Program-made: the position numbers and the translations under genes
The notes under the pieces: generated by a model
Told to the model about the DNA's origin: nothing
The model's database searches: none
The model's input: the letters and a program-made list of their open reading frames with translations, nothing else
In this document: piece after piece, positions 48,106 to 60,933 of the stretch
Numbering within the stretch: the first letter of the stretch is position 1
Layout: the number at the start of each line of letters is the position of its first letter
Assembly: GCA_965652295.1 (NCBI GenBank)
Contig: CBFGTS010000017.1
Location: 32,769 to 96,768 of the forward strand
Length of the DNA stretch: 64,000 nt
DNA from: an uncultured Haloferula sp.
GTDB taxonomy: Bacteria; Verrucomicrobiota; Verrucomicrobiia; Verrucomicrobiales; Akkermansiaceae
Reading direction: 5' to 3'

Positions 48106-48477
48106 TCATCCCTGCCGCTGCTGCATCAGCACGAAGGGCGTGACGACGACCGCCGTGAAAAGCTCGTCGCCGCCCTTCCATTGCGCGGCGTGGAGCTGGC
48201 CGACGCGGACGAGGTCGCCATTTCCAAGCCAGTCGGCGACGCGGGTGGCTTCGTCGTGGATGATCGCGAGAGCGACGTCCTCCAGCGGCAGCGCGGGATC
48301 GACCCAGAGCAGCGCGTCGCGCTTGTAGTGGGGTTTCAGGTAGCTCCAGCGGACGTCTCCGGTGTATTTGGAAATCTTGTCATGCTCGCTGAGCGCGTCT
48401 TCGCCGAGAATGCCGTATTTCATGGGTTCGTCGGAATGCATGCGGATGAGAGTCGGCGTGAAGTCGGCTGGGATCAA
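48106..48477 (-). CDS. DUF2288-like small protein (start uncertain)
   Basis: W..LKPH, VDPAL.L.DV, W and AVVVTPFVLMQ pattern. Confidence 0.7.
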   Translation of the reverse strand: MIPADFTPTLIRMHSDEPMKYGILGEDALSEHDKISKYTGDVRWSYLKPHYKRDALLWVDPALPLEDVALAIIHDEATRVADWLGNGDLVRVGQLHAAQWKGGDELFTAVVVTPFVLMQQRQG

Positions 48478-48553
48478 GGCGGAGAGATGCGCCTCGGGGG
48501 CGGCTTACCTTCCCTTGTCGCGCGCAGATCCGTGGTGTATCCCGACGGGACGC

Positions 48554-51097
48554 ATGAGCGACCCCGTGGTTCTCCAATACTGTCCCGACCTGCTTTCCTA
48601 CACCCGCCGCCGCAGCCGCGAGGTGATGGTGGGAAAGGTGGGCATCGGCGGCGGCCACCCGATCCGGCTTCAATCGATGATCACCGCCGACACGCGCGAT
48701 ACCCCGGCGTGTGTGAAGGAAATCCTGGAGCTGGCGGAGGCGGGCTGCGAGATCGTGCGGGTGACCGCCCAAACGAAGGTTTACGCCGCGAATCTGGAGA
48801 ACATCGCCCGCGAGGTCCGCGCTGCCGGTTGCGAGGTGCCGCTGGTGGCGGACATCCATTTCAAGCCCGATGCCGCGATGGAGGCGGCGAAGTGGGTGGA
48901 AAAGGTCCGCGTGAACCCCGGCAACTACGTGGACAAGAAAAAGTTCGAGGTCCGCGAGTACAGCGACGACCAGTATGAGGAGGAGCTGGAGCGGATCCGG
49001 CAGGAATTTTCGCCGCTGGTGGAGCGGTGCAAAGAGCTGGGCCGGGCGATGCGGATCGGCACCAACCACGGCTCGCTGTCCGACCGCATCATGAACCGCT
49101 ACGGCGACACGCCGCTGGGCATGGTGGAAAGCGCCCTGGAATTCGCCCGGATCGCGCGGGATCTGGATTATCACAACTTTGTGTTCTCGATGAAGGCCTC
49201 GAACCCGAAGGTCATGATCGAGGCCTACCGGCTGCTGGTCGCGCGGCTGGATCAGGAGGGCGATGACTGGAATTACCCGATCCACCTCGGAGTGACCGAG
49301 GCCGGCGATGGCGAGGACGGTCGGATCAAGAGCGCGATCGGCATCGGCTCGCTGCTGGCGGATGGGATCGGCGACACGATCCGTGTCTCGCTGACCGAGG
49401 ATCCGGTGTATGAGATCCCCGTCGCCCGGGTCCTGGCGGAGCCATTTCAGGGAGGTGGCTGCTCCGGCCCGGGGCAGGCCGTGGAGGCTGCGGCTCGCAG
49501 CCGTTCTTTGGCGGCGGATGGTGCGGAGATCGCCATCAACTGGGACGAGGTCGAGAAATCCGACGCGTCATTTCTCCCACACTGGAGCATGCCGGGTGGT
49601 GCTTATGCGGTGACCTTTCGGTTGGAAGACTCCCTGCCGGAAAGCGCGATCCTCGCGTATCGCGAGCGCCGCGAGATCCTGCTCGCCCGACTGGAAAAGC
49701 TGTCCCGAGCCTCCGGTTCGAGGAGTGTCCGCGAGGAGTTGATCCAGCTCCGCGGCGAACTCGCCGGGCTGCGGGAAGCGGTGGTGGAGTCCGAGCTGGA
49801 TCGCAGTCATGGCTCCTGTTTGTTCCGTGACGATCAGCTGGCCGGGTTGGTGGAGGAATGTCTCCATCACTTCGATGGCGTCAGGTATGATCTGTTGGCG
49901 TGGTGCGTGATGCCGAATCACGTTCACGCGGTTTTGCGACCACGGAGCGGGTTCTTGTTGGAAAAGATTCTCCACACTTGGAAGAGCTTCACGGCGCACG
50001 AGATCAACCGGCTGCTCCAGCGGGAAGGGACCATCTGGGAGAAGGAGAGCTACGATCATTTGGTTCGCGACGGCGCGGATCTCCGGCATCAGGTGGAGTA
50101 TGTGTGTCGGAATCCCGGCAAGGCGGGGTTGCAGGGATGGCGGTGGGTGGGGAGTGCGTATGAGGTGGATGGCGTTGCGGCGGGCCGCCGCAACCACGGT
50201 CTGCCCCGGGCCGGGGCAGCCACGGATGCTTCCCAGCCCGCCCCTTCCTACGACCCATTCTCCTATGCTCGCCGTAGTTCGGAGGTGATGGAAATCGCCG
50301 GCCTCGAGCTGGGAGGCGACCGGGAGATCCGGGTCTTCACCTCGCAGGAAAAATGGAACGCGGTGGCCCACAAGATCGCGAAAATGGGCGACTTCAAGCC
50401 GGAGATCGTGGTGGAGAAATCGGGCGTGGTGGTGATCGATCCCCGCGACGAGGCCGCCCTCCACGACATCAACACCATCGAAGGAACCCGTCTGGTGACG
50501 GTGGCGGACGGGCTCGACCTGGCACCGATCCACGCCTTCCGGATGCTGGCTTTCCGCCTGGACGCCCGGCACCCGATCCTGCTCAAGGACACCTTGCAGC
50601 CCGCGGCGGAAAGCGGGGACTTCGTGGAAACCCTGCTGGTCGCGGCCCGCAACCTCGGCTCGCTGATCTGCGATGGCATCGGTGACGCGGTGCTGGTGCA
50701 AGGGGAGCCGGCGCCAGGGCAGTCCCTGCGACTTTCCTACAACATCCTCCAGGCCTCCGGCGCGCGGATTTTCAAAACCGACTACGTGGCCTGTCCGAGC
50801 TGCGGGCGGACCTTGTTCAATCTCCAGACGACAACCCAGAAGATCCGCGCGGCGACCGGCCACCTCAAGGGCGTGCGGATCGCGGTGATGGGCTGCATCG
50901 TCAACGGCCCCGGCGAGATGGCGGATGCGGACTTCGGCTACGTCGGCGGCGCGCCGGGGAAGATCAACCTGTACGTGGGCAAGCAGGCGGTGAAATTCAA
51001 CATTCCGGAAGGCGAGGCGGTCGAGCGGCTGATCGATCTGATCCGCGAGCACGGCAAATGGATCGACGCGCCGGCAGGCGAACCGGTGGAAGTCTGA
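48554..51097 (+). CDS. ispG: (E)-4-hydroxy-3-methylbut-2-enyl-diphosphate synthase, long type, with an in-frame RAYT insertion
   Basis: QSM, VADIHF, RVNPGN, RIGTNHGSL, HLGVTEAG, DTIRVSLT, CPSCGRT and MGCIVNGPGE motifs; 847 aa. Confidence 0.95.
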   Translation: MSDPVVLQYCPDLLSYTRRRSREVMVGKVGIGGGHPIRLQSMITADTRDTPACVKEILELAEAGCEIVRVTAQTKVYAANLENIAREVRAAGCEVPLVADIHFKPDAAMEAAKWVEKVRVNPGNYVDKKKFEVREYSDDQYEEELERIRQEFSPLVERCKELGRAMRIGTNHGSLSDRIMNRYGDTPLGMVESALEFARIARDLDYHNFVFSMKASNPKVMIEAYRLLVARLDQEGDDWNYPIHLGVTEAGDGEDGRIKSAIGIGSLLADGIGDTIRVSLTEDPVYEIPVARVLAEPFQGGGCSGPGQAVEAAARSRSLAADGAEIAINWDEVEKSDASFLPHWSMPGGAYAVTFRLEDSLPESAILAYRERREILLARLEKLSRASGSRSVREELIQLRGELAGLREAVVESELDRSHGSCLFRDDQLAGLVEECLHHFDGVRYDLLAWCVMPNHVHAVLRPRSGFLLEKILHTWKSFTAHEINRLLQREGTIWEKESYDHLVRDGADLRHQVEYVCRNPGKAGLQGWRWVGSAYEVDGVAAGRRNHGLPRAGAATDASQPAPSYDPFSYARRSSEVMEIAGLELGGDREIRVFTSQEKWNAVAHKIAKMGDFKPEIVVEKSGVVVIDPRDEAALHDINTIEGTRLVTVADGLDLAPIHAFRMLAFRLDARHPILLKDTLQPAAESGDFVETLLVAARNLGSLICDGIGDAVLVQGEPAPGQSLRLSYNILQASGARIFKTDYVACPSCGRTLFNLQTTTQKIRAATGHLKGVRIAVMGCIVNGPGEMADADFGYVGGAPGKINLYVGKQAVKFNIPEGEAVERLIDLIREHGKWIDAPAGEPVEV
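49455..50223 (+). mobile_element. REP-flanked RAYT/Y1 tyrosine-transposase module inserted in frame in ispG
   Basis: LPHW, VTFRL.DSLP, VMPNHVH, KSFTA, WEKESYDHLVR and YVCRNP motifs; 30-bp terminal inverted repeat (28/30). Confidence 0.9.
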
Positions 51098-57336: not shown

Positions 57337-57384
57337 CTTTACACGGTTGTGTGTGGAGCCCCGTGGGTGTTAAGGGGACGACTA

Positions 57385-57417
57385 AAGGGGCGGGCCTTGG
57401 CAAGAGGCCCGCCCCTT
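57385..57417 (+). terminator. stem-loop after the PEP-CTERM gene (probable terminator)
   Basis: aaggggcgggcc / ggcccgcccctt 12-bp stem followed by catgtttt. Confidence 0.5.
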
Positions 57418-57513
57418 CATGTTTTCGCGAAACCGGGGCGGCTTCCCGGGCTTTACTCGGCTCCGGGATTTCCCCATCGTCCCGCCCCTTCGTTTCCAAC
57501 GACTCCCGCGCCC

Positions 57514-60500
57514 ATGACCGCCGCCGAAATCCGCCAGTCCTTCCTCGATTTCTTCAAGGAGAAGCAGCACACCGTCGTGCCCTCCGCCTCGCTCCTGCCG
57601 CAGTCGCCCGGCCTGCTTTTCACCAATGCGGGAATGAACCAGTTCGTGCCCTATTTTCTTGGCACCGACAAGGCACCCTACAACCCGCCGCGTGCCGCGG
57701 ACACGCAGAAATGCATCCGCGCCGGGGGCAAGCACAACGACCTCGAGGACGTCGGCTACGACACCTACCACCACACGATGTTCGAGATGCTCGGGAACTG
57801 GTCGTTCGGCGACTACTTCAAGCCCGAGGCCATCCGCTGGGCGTGGGAACTGGTGGTCGAGCGCTGGGGCGTGCCCGCCAACCGCCTCTACGCCACCGTC
57901 TATGCGCCGGACAAGGCGAAGGGTGATCCCGGTGAATTCGACCAGGAAGCGTGGGACATCTGGGCCGAGCTGTTCCGCGGAAAGGGTCTCGATCCCCGCG
58001 TGCACATCGTCGATGGCAACGTGAAGGACAACTTCTGGATGATGGGCGAGACCGGCCCCTGCGGCCCGTGTTCGGAGCTGCATGTTGATCTCACGCCGAA
58101 CGGCGATTCGAACGGCCAGCTCGTCAACGGCGACTCCGACCTCTGTATCGAGATCTGGAACCTCGTCTTCATCCAGTACAACGCCGAGGCCGACGGTTCC
58201 TTCCGCGAGCTACCCGCCAAGCACATCGACACCGGCATGGGCTTCGAGCGCGCCTGCTCGATCATCCAGAACACCAAAGGTTTCACGGATTTCTCGGTGA
58301 AACCCAGCAACTACGCCACCGACGTTTTCACCCCGATCTTCCGCAAGCTGGAGGAACTCAGCGGCAAAACCTACGTCAACATCTACCCCGAGCCCGGTGC
58401 CGACCGCTCGGCCTTCAGCGAGGAGATGAAAACGGCCATCGCCTTCCGCGTGATCGCCGACCACCTGCGGACGCTCAGCTTTTCCATCGCCGATGGCATC
58501 CTGCCCGGCAACAACGGCCGCAACTACGTCCTCCGTCGTATCTTGCGCCGCGCCGTCCGCTACGGCCGCCAGCTCGGCTTCTCCGGCGACAAGCCGTTCT
58601 TCGGCGCGCTGGTCTCGACGCTGGTGGAGCAAATGGGCGGCGTCTTCCCCGAACTCAAGGAACGCGAAGCCGCCGTGCGGGTGACGCTGGAACGGGAAGA
58701 GGCGAGCTTCAATGAGACGCTGGACCGGGGGTTGAAGCGCTTCGAAGACGCGGTCGGGACGGGGAGCGCCGGCGTCCCGCCCGGTCCTTCTTCTCCCGCC
58801 GAAGGCCCACGCTATTCCAAGCACCATGGCCTCCCTCACTTCGAACGTCCTTGGGGCAAGTATCTGATCACGGTTTCCACCGACCAGCGGTGTGAGCTGT
58901 CTGAAGAAGCTCGGGAGATCGTGCTCAATGCCATCCGTCACTTTCACCCCGACCGTTACGTTCTCTTCGCAGCAGTGGTGATGCCGGATCATTTCCATAT
59001 GCTCATCGAGCCTCAGCCAAAGACCCATGGTGCCGATGGCACCCCGGAGTTCTGGGAACTCGGGGAGTTGATGCATTCGATCAAATCTTTCACCGCGAAG
59101 GAGATTAACAAGCTCACTGGTGGTGCCGGGACGGTATGGGAACGGGACTACCACGATCGATTGATCCGCTCGGAGTCCGACCTCCAGGAGAAGTTCTCGT
59201 ACGTCACCTCGAATCCGTCGCGAGCCGGATTGACCCGAGATGACGATTACCCATTCGTCTGGTCCCAAGGGTGGAGCGAGGGTTCCAGGGAAGACTTCCG
59301 GCAGGATGCCGGAAGCAGCCGGCGGGACGCCGGCGCTCCCCGTCCCGTCACGACGCTCTCCGGCGAAATCGCCTTCGAACTCTACGACACCTTCGGTTTC
59401 CCCATCGACCTCACCGAGCTGCTCTGCGCCGAACGTGGCATCAAGGTCAACATGCAGCGCTTCGAAGAGCTGATGGAGCGGCAGCGTGAGCGCGCCCGTG
59501 CGGCGCAGAAATCGACGGTCGTCCGCGCGCTCGACATCTCCACCGAAGCGATCACCGCCTTCACCGGCTTCGATGGCGATGAAGCGGAGGCCCTCGTGCT
59601 CGAAGTCCACGAGCAGGAGGACGCGCTTTTCATCATCACCGACAAAACGCCCTTTTACGCCGAAATGGGCGGCCAGGCCGGCGATACCGGAACGCTCGTT
59701 AAAGAGGCCGTGGCCGTGAGCGTCACCCACGTGCAACAAATCGGCCGCGCCCGCGCGCATGCGGTTTCCAAATCGGAAATCTCCAATCTCCAATCTTCAA
59801 TCCAGCCCGGCGACACGGTGAAGCTCCGCATCGACGCCAAACGCCGTCGCCCGATCGAGGCCCACCACACCGCCACCCACCTCCTCCACTGGGCCTTGCA
59901 CGAGGTCGTTTCGAGCGACGCGGCGCAGCAGGGTTCGTCGGTCGATGACACCCGCCTGCGGTTCGACTTCAACAGCGCGCCGGTCACGCCGGAGCAGATC
60001 GAGGCGATGGAGGAAAAGGTGAACGCCTGCATCGCCGCCGATCAGCCGGTTTCCTGGAAGGAAGTGCCGCCCGCCGAGGTCAAGGATCGCAAGGATGTGA
60101 TGCAGTTCTTCGGTGACAAGTACGGAGATACGGTGCGCGTCGTACAAATCGGCGGCACGCCGGGCGCGATTGATGGCTACTCGATGGAACTCTGCGGCGG
60201 CACCCACGTCCGCACGACCGGCGAGATCGGGCTTTTCAAGATCAAGAGCGAGGGGGCGATCGCCTCCGGCGTGCGGCGGATCGAAGCCGTCTGCGGCGAG
60301 AGCGCGTGGGAGCACCTGCGCGAGGTGGTGGCACAGCTTGATGAGGAATCCGACAACCTGCACGCCAAGCTTTCCGCGGCGAACGCACGTCTCTCGGAAC
60401 TCGGTGAGGAGCCGCTTCAGGTGGGCGAGGCCCCGCGCATCATGATGGCGATGCTCACGGAGAAGGGCGACGTCACCCAGATCAACCACACGCTCAACAT

Positions 60501-60933
60501 GGTCCGCGTGAAGCTCGATGAGCTGCGCGAGGCGGGCATTGAGGCGGAGAAGAAGGTGAAGAAACTGCAAGCCTCCTCCGCCGCCAAGCAGGCCGATGCA
60601 GCGTTGGCTTTGCTCATCGAGCAAGGCGGCCCGATCGTCACCTCTTTGGAATCGGACGCCTCGTTGCTGCAAGAGCTGCTCAACGGGCTGAAGAAAAAGC
60701 AGTTCGCGGAAGCGGCGTTCCTGATCGTGGACGATGGCGAGAAGCTCCACCTCGGCACCTACTGCGGCGAGGCGGCGCTGGGCCGGGGTCTCAAGGCGGG
60801 CGACCTGCTGCGCGAGCTGGCGGCGATCGCCGGCGGCAAAGGCGGCGGCAAACCGGACATGGCCCGCGGTGCCGCACCCGAGCGCGTGAAGCTGACGGAG
60901 ATGGAAGAGGCGGCGAAAGCGAAGCTCGCCTAG
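57514..60933 (+). CDS. alaS: alanine--tRNA ligase with an in-frame RAYT insertion
   Basis: FTNAGMNQF, FEMLGNWSFGDYFK, GPCGPCSE, DTGMGFER, LYDTFGFP, HTATHLLH, ELCGGTH and GGKGGG motifs; 1139 aa. Confidence 0.97.
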   Translation: MTAAEIRQSFLDFFKEKQHTVVPSASLLPQSPGLLFTNAGMNQFVPYFLGTDKAPYNPPRAADTQKCIRAGGKHNDLEDVGYDTYHHTMFEMLGNWSFGDYFKPEAIRWAWELVVERWGVPANRLYATVYAPDKAKGDPGEFDQEAWDIWAELFRGKGLDPRVHIVDGNVKDNFWMMGETGPCGPCSELHVDLTPNGDSNGQLVNGDSDLCIEIWNLVFIQYNAEADGSFRELPAKHIDTGMGFERACSIIQNTKGFTDFSVKPSNYATDVFTPIFRKLEELSGKTYVNIYPEPGADRSAFSEEMKTAIAFRVIADHLRTLSFSIADGILPGNNGRNYVLRRILRRAVRYGRQLGFSGDKPFFGALVSTLVEQMGGVFPELKEREAAVRVTLEREEASFNETLDRGLKRFEDAVGTGSAGVPPGPSSPAEGPRYSKHHGLPHFERPWGKYLITVSTDQRCELSEEAREIVLNAIRHFHPDRYVLFAAVVMPDHFHMLIEPQPKTHGADGTPEFWELGELMHSIKSFTAKEINKLTGGAGTVWERDYHDRLIRSESDLQEKFSYVTSNPSRAGLTRDDDYPFVWSQGWSEGSREDFRQDAGSSRRDAGAPRPVTTLSGEIAFELYDTFGFPIDLTELLCAERGIKVNMQRFEELMERQRERARAAQKSTVVRALDISTEAITAFTGFDGDEAEALVLEVHEQEDALFIITDKTPFYAEMGGQAGDTGTLVKEAVAVSVTHVQQIGRARAHAVSKSEISNLQSSIQPGDTVKLRIDAKRRRPIEAHHTATHLLHWALHEVVSSDAAQQGSSVDDTRLRFDFNSAPVTPEQIEAMEEKVNACIAADQPVSWKEVPPAEVKDRKDVMQFFGDKYGDTVRVVQIGGTPGAIDGYSMELCGGTHVRTTGEIGLFKIKSEGAIASGVRRIEAVCGESAWEHLREVVAQLDEESDNLHAKLSAANARLSELGEEPLQVGEAPRIMMAMLTEKGDVTQINHTLNMVRVKLDELREAGIEAEKKVKKLQASSAAKQADAALALLIEQGGPIVTSLESDASLLQELLNGLKKKQFAEAAFLIVDDGEKLHLGTYCGEAALGRGLKAGDLLRELAAIAGGKGGGKPDMARGAAPERVKLTEMEEAAKAKLA
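58755..59347 (+). mobile_element. REP-flanked RAYT/Y1 tyrosine-transposase module inserted in frame in alaS
   Basis: LPHF, YLITVST, VMPDHFH, KSFTA, WERDYHDRLIR and YVTSNP motifs; perfect 27-bp terminal inverted repeat. Confidence 0.9.
59770..59802 (+). repeat. 7-mer tandem repeat inside alaS
   Basis: aaatcgg aaatctc caatctc caatctt caatc, read as KSEISNLQSSI. Confidence 0.7.

Follow-up and report, generated by a model that had tools for sequence, protein, structure and literature searches.

The alaS gene carries an in-frame insertion

The window, i.e. the whole stretch of DNA analyzed, comprises 64,000 nucleotides on contig C17 of a 4.37-Mb metagenome bin that is 98% complete and belongs to a soil bacterium of the Verrucomicrobiota. 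It contains the alanine-tRNA ligase (AlaRS) gene alaS at 57514..60933 on the plus strand, with 1139 codons including the insert. The reading frame is open over its full length from 57349 to 60933, and the ATG at 57514 is the likely start. The product scores 795.6 bits against TIGR00344 (cut-off 457) with a match split into two stretches, and contains the Pfam domains tRNA-synt_2c, tRNA_SAD and DHHA1. Both AlaRS family models are broken at a single point, by 198 extra codons at 58756..59349 (plus strand). The N- and C-terminal parts of alaS were each found at one place in the genome by tblastn, and this is the sole copy in the assembly. Since alaS is single-copy, we infer that the chimeric enzyme must still charge tRNA-Ala.

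The insert comprises in order a left REP arm, a RAYT (REP-associated HUH/tyrosine transposase), a second hairpin and a right REP arm. The trinucleotide GTC at 58753-58755 is repeated at 59347-59349, and deletion of 58756-59349 (594 nt) leaves the frame intact, joining FEDAV to TTLSGE. The extra codons, the flanking GTC and the frame-keeping removal had all been described in an earlier reading made from the sequence alone, and the coordinates check out. One correction is needed, in that the insert is more than an addition of codons; judged against relatives with an empty site, about six native loop residues (LPEVKD) have been replaced. A codon printout reveals no ATG, GTG or TTG in frame from the left arm to the LPHF motif, and the insert has no stop codon of its own, the frame continuing into AlaRS. 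Being continuous with AlaRS on both sides, the RAYT is not a stand-alone gene, and lacking a start or stop it should be made only as part of AlaRS. The GC content at third codon positions is 0.70 for the insert and 0.86 for the host alaS. A similar gap to the host is seen for inserts in ispG and metH, and for that of a second genome of the genus (G006). The low value is compatible with weaker codon selection or with later arrival.

The insert encodes a RAYT domain

The insert alone scores 89.6 bits against the NCBIfam model REP_Tyr_transpos (NF047646; cut-off 80), and the full AlaRS protein scores 85.1 bits. The sequence-only reading had made its assignment depend on a match to Pfam Y1_Tnp. 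This was found, at a borderline 23.3 bits against a cut-off of 23. The motifs that it had listed (LPHF, VMPDHFH, KSFTA, WERDYHDRLIR and YVTSNP) are all present. The HUH motif is H493-F-H495 (codons 58990-58998), while Tyr563 (codon 59200-59202) lies within YVTSNP and is followed by Asn567 at +4. By analogy we take Y563 to be the catalytic nucleophile of the domain. An AlphaFold model of the insert calculated from a 47-sequence alignment has a pLDDT of 80.3. On searching with Foldseek its top match in the PDB was 4ER8, the E. coli RAYT-REP complex (E = 1e-7), followed by the IS200, ISDra2 and IS608 transposases. The curated family score, the HUH motif with a single tyrosine, the TnpA-REP fold and the inverted REP flanks confirm that the insert encodes an intact RAYT, a class 2 Y1 HUH transposase. 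Assignment as an IS200/IS605 insertion sequence was rejected. The score against NF033573 is only 20.8 bits where 55 is required, the ends are inverted, and there is a single open reading frame in the 594 bp.

A model of the full-length AlaRS (pLDDT 80.7, 53 sequences) shows how the domain might be accommodated. The AlaRS helix of residues 385-414 stops exactly at the insertion point, and the AlaRS fold picks up again at about residue 614. Between these, the folded RAYT core (residues 441-587; 58834..59274, plus strand) is modeled with a pLDDT of about 85-98, and the REP-coded residues 416-440 and 588-610 fall below 50. The combination of low-confidence arms with a confident core suggests that the REP-coded stretches are flexible linkers of roughly 25 residues, and that the RAYT forms a separate lobe. 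Independent folding of the insert, which the sequence-only reading had raised as a question for modeling, is thus what the models predict.

Inverted REP hairpins flank the RAYT

The left terminal inverted repeat (58755..58790, plus strand) has the head GGGGAGC at 58761-58767 followed by a hairpin, and is translated as VGTGSAGVPPGP. The right repeat (59312..59347) reads on the minus strand as GGGGAGC followed by GCCGGC-GTCCC-GCCGGC, forming an intact REP hairpin, and is translated as RRDAGAPRP. The arms 58755-58781 and 59321-59347 are perfectly complementary at 27 of 27 positions, as had been reported, and extension to 58755-58790 and 59312-59347 gives 36 nt at 92%. A perfect inverted repeat of 27 nt in a 600-nt span greatly exceeds what chance would give. 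The right-hand REP unit includes a second hairpin at 59295..59315 (plus strand), also reported previously; folded as DNA it has a 9-bp stem CTTCCGGCA/TGCCGGAAG and a GGA loop.

About ten further copies of this REP were found in the genome using blastn-short, on contigs C2, C3, C7, C8, C9, C10 and C12. Three of them have the second hairpin, this two-hairpin unit recurring at C2:371246-371300, C2:370443-370496 and C12:5614-5657, and two copies are inverted doublets. Several are translated in frame, in a uvrA-like gene, in acnA (aconitase) and in a gene for an Fe-S protein, where singlets encode peptides of the type GSAGVPP. None of the other RAYTs in the genome is flanked by REPs of this family. 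It is likely that the AlaRS-borne RAYT acts on these approximately ten same-family copies.

We aligned the left arm with arms from other loci, using 96 of the 104 found after dropping eight that were out of register. The left arm is in register with the 96, in which the head G-G-[G/T]-A-G is invariant or nearly so, with GGAG here and GTAG in many relatives. In the 7-bp stem 96.3% of 672 cells are paired, compared to 78.7% in shuffled arms and 27-58% with a slid partner. Compensatory cells number 89, compared to 21.9 in the shuffles, and none of 500 shuffles gave as many, where it should be borne in mind that the two arms of an element are interdependent and that the loci are related. Thus the hairpin stems at both ends have been preserved through compensatory change. 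Among repeat heads found by pattern, 29 of 31 share one reading phase. This is weak as proof of selection at the DNA level, since common descent would give the same result.

Integrity of the locus

The stretch is present in near-identical form in runs of a rhizosphere study, its probable source, and is also present in soil and sludge studies. The right junction is crossed by contigs of two independent studies, covering 58790-59414 (three differences) and 59206-59445 (no differences). The left junction is spanned solely in the probable source run. As far as the contigs show, this excludes the misassembly that the sequence-only reading had allowed for, and the same architecture is found in dozens of independent assemblies.

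That reading had also proposed that the insert might be excised. No joined form was found in the contigs of four runs, where rare forms could be missed, and the only joint found there is another genomic locus with two REP copies. Moreover the empty relatives have the loop DALPEVKDxTLSGE and not the DAVTTLSGE that excision would leave. Metatranscriptome X18 yielded only short conserved pieces of alaS with mismatches, from other organisms. At the RNA level, base-pairing of the arms would give a long panhandle enclosing the insert (MFE z = -5.85), as is to be expected from the inverted repeat itself. An Rfam scan of 58400-59700 matched no intron family, giving only a chance miRNA match (E = 0.91); with no ribozyme core in that scan, we rejected a group I or II intron or an IStron. 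An intein was rejected likewise. The first residue of the insert is Gly and the last two are Pro-Val, where an intein would have Cys or Ser at the start and His-Asn at the end, and the fold is HUH and not Hint.

Distribution of the embedded lineage

The sequence-only reading had called the alaS insert a second, distinct RAYT, and this is borne out. A RAYT also lies in frame in ispG within the window (ORF 48362-51097), and is only 37% identical to that of alaS. The genome has two such further in-frame RAYTs, in ispG and metH, of a lineage different from that of the alaS insert.

Relatives of the alaS insert were found in 448 long proteins (E ≤ 1e-5), within AlaRS, MetH, ThrRS, RecG, CarB, DnaE and a DNA methylase, although many of these are metagenome proteins so that the sampling favors filled sites. 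Named sources include Luteolibacter, Opitutaceae, Ereboglobus, Chthoniobacter and Verrucomicrobium. Some of the embedded-RAYT proteins are named 'alanine--tRNA ligase-related protein' at NCBI. Relatives of the insert are encoded by at least 571 stretches of species-representative genomes. Within the best 80 of these loci, 77 lie in a recognized host gene, i.e. AlaRS (34), RecG (23), CarB (8), ThrRS (7), MetH (3) or DnaE (2); one is in an unassigned frame of 786 aa, and the remaining two, of about 229 aa, stand free. When 401 genomes were sampled evenly from the phylum, six gave matches (E ≤ 1e-25), all six in ORFs of 730-1198 aa. A library clustered at 50% gave 57 best representatives (E ≤ 1e-30), of which only 25 reach 350 aa, and the shorter ones may be fragments or free forms.

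Embedding of the lineage is not strictly obligatory, since free-standing copies of around 200 aa exist, amounting to two or three of the best 80 loci plus several proteins on long contigs. The ORFs of these likewise read through both repeat arms. Within AlaRS the location is closely fixed. Where both flanks could be mapped, 71 of 72 RAYT segments, including our own, are at the same loop, and in one AlaRS protein a further insert is located around residue 300. The same loop is occupied by this lineage in several families of Verrucomicrobiota. It is most likely that these are old Verrucomicrobiota RAYTs that live almost only inside housekeeping genes.

Selection on the RAYT core

The HUH histidines, the tyrosine and the asparagine at +4 are invariant in all 53 AlaRS-embedded copies. 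We calculated dN/dS by the Nei-Gojobori method using 149 codons of the RAYT core from 22 AlaRS genes, where 31 of the 231 pairs have unsaturated dS; for these 31 the values range from 0.11 to 0.44. Comparing our insert with its nearest relative at the DNA level (L049) gives dN/dS = 0.12 for the RAYT core and 0.16 for the host part. The RAYT core is under purifying selection. Synonymous divergence could not serve as a clock to distinguish vertical from horizontal descent, because dS is saturated in most pairs and the strong codon bias of the host is a confounding factor.

The sequence-only reading had suggested that the insertion was recent or actively maintained. The low dN/dS, the invariant residues and the covarying stems uphold the second part. 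The first does not survive, since the nearest known copy is only 71% identical and the same loop holds RAYTs of this lineage in several families.

Host and RAYT phylogenies

The comparison of alaS across the genus that had been proposed earlier covered 30 of 35 genomes at the sequence level. A RAYT is present in two, our own (G000) and G006; the junction is identical, but the RAYTs are only 42% alike. The native loop DALPEVKDxTLSGE is present in 18, and the remaining 10 have unrelated inserts of 8-116 residues in the loop. Nine of the latter (that of G018 being left out) gave no match to the RAYT HMM (all E > 0.3) and have no mutual similarity, so there is no support for regarding them as decayed RAYTs. 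The closest AlaRS relatives of our sequence are G032 (90%) and G035, both empty, and G003, which has an unrelated insert.

The relationships between the inserts do not follow those of their hosts. The closest RAYT to our insert is 71% identical, yet its AlaRS host is only 80% alike. Conversely, four hosts that are all about 90.5% alike have inserts that are either 57-59% or 82-84% alike. Placing the presence of a RAYT on the AlaRS tree requires at least five changes. On the host tree the two well-supported sublineages of the RAYT are distributed at random, requiring six changes compared to a mean of 6.3 when shuffled. Forcing the hosts of one sublineage into a clade is worse by 408 log-likelihood units (AU test p = 8.8e-50), for groups that were defined after the RAYT tree had been seen. 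On the RAYT tree itself the host-gene label switches at least 20 times. DnaE and methylase copies are nested within AlaRS clades, and there are ThrRS and MetH clades beside AlaRS ones.

The conflict between the RAYT and AlaRS trees, together with the empty sites of the closest relatives, indicates horizontal turnover at a fixed site. As shown by the tree conflict, related hosts have exchanged the cassette horizontally at the AlaRS loop. It is an element of long persistence that sometimes jumps between genes.

DISCUSSION

We consider it very probable, from the sequence comparisons and structural models, that the alaS insert is a translated, linker-tethered RAYT domain belonging to a gene-embedded lineage of REPtrons. 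It would be a complete REPtron-type unit, with a class 2 Y1 HUH transposase between two inverted REP hairpins headed by GGAG or GTAG. This unit lies in frame within the tRNA-recognition part of AlaRS, in a surface loop immediately after the helix of residues 385-414. The RAYT would then be produced solely as a domain of AlaRS, with the REP-coded stretches serving as linkers. Purifying selection on protein and DNA hairpins alike keeps the lineage in being, and the cassette occasionally jumps to other genes. Its exchange at the loop might occur either by re-insertion at REP remnants or by homologous recombination via the conserved flanks of alaS.

A more far-reaching reading can be offered only tentatively. 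The element might be a counterpart of an intein that does without splicing, a read-through transposon whose transposase would act solely as part of an essential enzyme. It would have neither start nor stop, and its REP ends would double as protein linkers. The transposase would mobilize its own REPs into coding regions, and the loop would be re-invaded in new hosts by a site preference, for example for REP remnants, and not by passive recombination. The essential host gene would thus act as both an expression vehicle and a shield against loss.

Alternatively the RAYT might be an exapted domain that is no longer mobile, is inherited vertically and serves the host, for example in nucleic acid binding or genome maintenance. 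The purifying selection on the RAYT is as strong as that on AlaRS itself, it has persisted in the same loop across families, and the identities of host and insert are broadly correlated. In addition RAYTs are typically single-copy and vertically inherited, according to the part of PMC5581495 that was available. Yet we think such exaptation unlikely. The terminal DNA hairpins maintained by compensatory change, the same-family REP copies dispersed in the genome, the conflict with the host tree and the movement of the lineage among at least six host genes all speak against it, and the closest relatives manage without it.

The insert might instead be removed before use, by excision of the DNA or by skipping at the level of RNA or the ribosome, to yield a normal AlaRS. 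Enzymes of the IS200/IS605 type excise seamlessly, and the GTC on both sides, the frame-preserving removal and the RNA panhandle would all suit such a process. However, hundreds of homologs have an open frame that lacks a start or stop, which is expected only if the insert is translated with the host. No intron family was matched, the empty alleles have a different loop, and no joined form was seen in the contigs of four runs, the last being a weak test. Removal is therefore very improbable. Protein splicing in the manner of an intein, or a chimera of assembly, is scarcely credible. The gene is conserved and essential, as for inteins, and the genome is a metagenome bin, but the terminal residues and HUH fold do not correspond to an intein, the right junction is crossed in two other studies, and the 34 AlaRS loci among the best 80 share the architecture.

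The usual description of RAYTs is of quasi-domesticated genes that stand alone and are present in single copy. A whole lineage living inside the frames of essential genes contrasts with that picture. This would be a third route, beside inteins and self-splicing introns, by which a selfish element can occupy a conserved gene, in which the host survives because the insert is tolerated in the protein. It would provide a natural test of the tolerance of aminoacyl-tRNA synthetases, RecG, CarB, MetH and DnaE to domain insertion, and a handle on how REPs enter coding sequences. It also carries a warning for annotation, in that hosts of embedded RAYTs may be given '-related protein' names at NCBI.

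Comparison with known systems

The closest known system is the REPtron, a RAYT (TnpA-REP) gene located between inverted REPs, exemplified by E. coli yafM (PDB 4ER8). Our insert shares with it the HUH motif and single tyrosine, passes the NCBIfam equivalog model, and has 4ER8 as its best fold match. It also has a pair of REP hairpins in inverted orientation, their 5' head being conserved, and a small dispersed family of genomic REPs. Unlike a REPtron, it does not form a separate gene: start and stop codons are lacking, translation runs through both REPs, and the whole is nested in frame in an essential gene. Its lineage is found repeatedly at the same loops in several housekeeping genes.

TIRtrons (TIRYT) are RAYT-like genes with longer inverted repeats and moderate repeat families (Di Nocera et al. 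2013, PMC3733652, here and below as far as its accessible text goes). Some of their repeats have a GGGGWSAS-like motif and arms that overlap the ends of the ORF, and REPtrons and REPs inside ORFs are described there, including tRNA synthetase genes and genes of Opitutus terrae (PMC3733652). The accessible text describes stand-alone transposase genes together with intragenic REPs, whereas here the transposase is embedded in the host frame, and the head GGGGAGCG matches GGGGWSAS at only seven of eight positions. In a large survey of Y1 proteins, over-long sequences were discarded as fusions or annotation errors, according to the available part of that study (Quentin et al. 2018, PMC6006769). In our literature searches no description emerged of a RAYT lying within the reading frame of a host gene, although the supplementary tables of PMC3733652 might list related cases.

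The likeness to inteins is one of lifestyle only. Both are selfish in-frame coding inserts at conserved sites of essential genes, sporadic among close relatives, with reuse of the site and a phylogeny uncoupled from that of the host gene. Unlike inteins the insert has no Hint fold, splicing residues or homing-endonuclease fold, and is presumably kept in the mature protein. IStrons consist of an IS200/IS605-like element fused to a group I intron, and are spliced from mRNA. They too illustrate that an element of the IS200/IS605 superfamily can be tolerated inside genes, but the Rfam scan of our insert region gave no intron and there is no tnpB.

Lastly, Rickettsia palindromic elements, which are mentioned in the accessible text of PMC3733652, and other in-frame REP or REPIN insertions are palindromes that are translated as extra loops in functional proteins. 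The REP singlets in the uvrA-like, acnA and Fe-S protein genes of our own genome are similar to these. Such elements are non-coding passengers of some tens of bases, whereas in alaS the unit inserted is autonomous and codes for an enzyme.

In-frame RAYT cassettes and single REP units elsewhere in the genome

A second in-frame RAYT cassette is present in the window at 49455-50223, lying inside the ispG ORF (48362-51097) and splitting that gene. It is bounded by an inverted repeat of 47 nt with 85% identity between its arms (49455-49501 and 50177-50223). The RAYT of ispG shares 37% identity with that of alaS, and belongs to a different lineage, near a free-standing RAYT on contig C1 of the same genome. 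Beyond the window, metH also carries an in-frame RAYT, within a frame of 1514 codons (C3:248833-253374). An inverted repeat with a score of at least 11 was sought around this RAYT, and none was found. The same RAYT match occurs in two relatives, G018 and G041, in frames of 1512-1514 aa.

The alaS insert (window 58756-59349) has a GC3 of 0.70, compared with 0.86 for the remainder of alaS. The RAYT inserts of ispG, of metH and of the genus genome G006 show the same gap in GC3 to their hosts.

Single REP units of the alaS-cassette family are translated in frame in a uvrA-like gene of 1953 codons (C7:142976-142999), in aconitase (C10:75136-75162) and in an Fe-S protein (C2:370443-370496). A peptide in the uvrA-like gene resembles the end of the ispG cassette. 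The gene for the Fe-S protein covers part of C2:370443-371300, where a pair of REP units lies in the same orientation with ~800 bp between them. This pair surfaced as a 'goes back' joint when contigs from sequencing runs were mapped.

Occupancy of the AlaRS loop and other members of the lineage

The AlaRS loop used by the RAYT holds non-RAYT inserts of 8-116 residues in 10 of the 30 genus genomes examined (loci L020, L027, L030, L032, L034, L035, L037, L039, L041 and L042). These are unrelated to one another in a mutual comparison that covered nine of the ten, i.e. all but the G018 insert (L027).

Among the homologous proteins found with the alaS insert, P0003, P0004 (MetH) and P0005 (AlaRS) each have two RAYT cassettes, located at separate sites of one gene. 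Three of the best 80 loci, taken from at least 571 related stretches in species-representative genomes, come from bins labeled Nitrospirota, Chitinophagaceae and Kiritimatiellaeota (L078, L094 and L111). These labels may reflect either binning error or a broader spread of the lineage. Five proteins of ~200 aa, all from long contigs, are free-standing members of the lineage (P0134, P0137, P0150, P0156 and P0165). In each the ORF includes both repeat arms and extends only a few codons beyond them; the start and stop seem to be provided by the flanking DNA.
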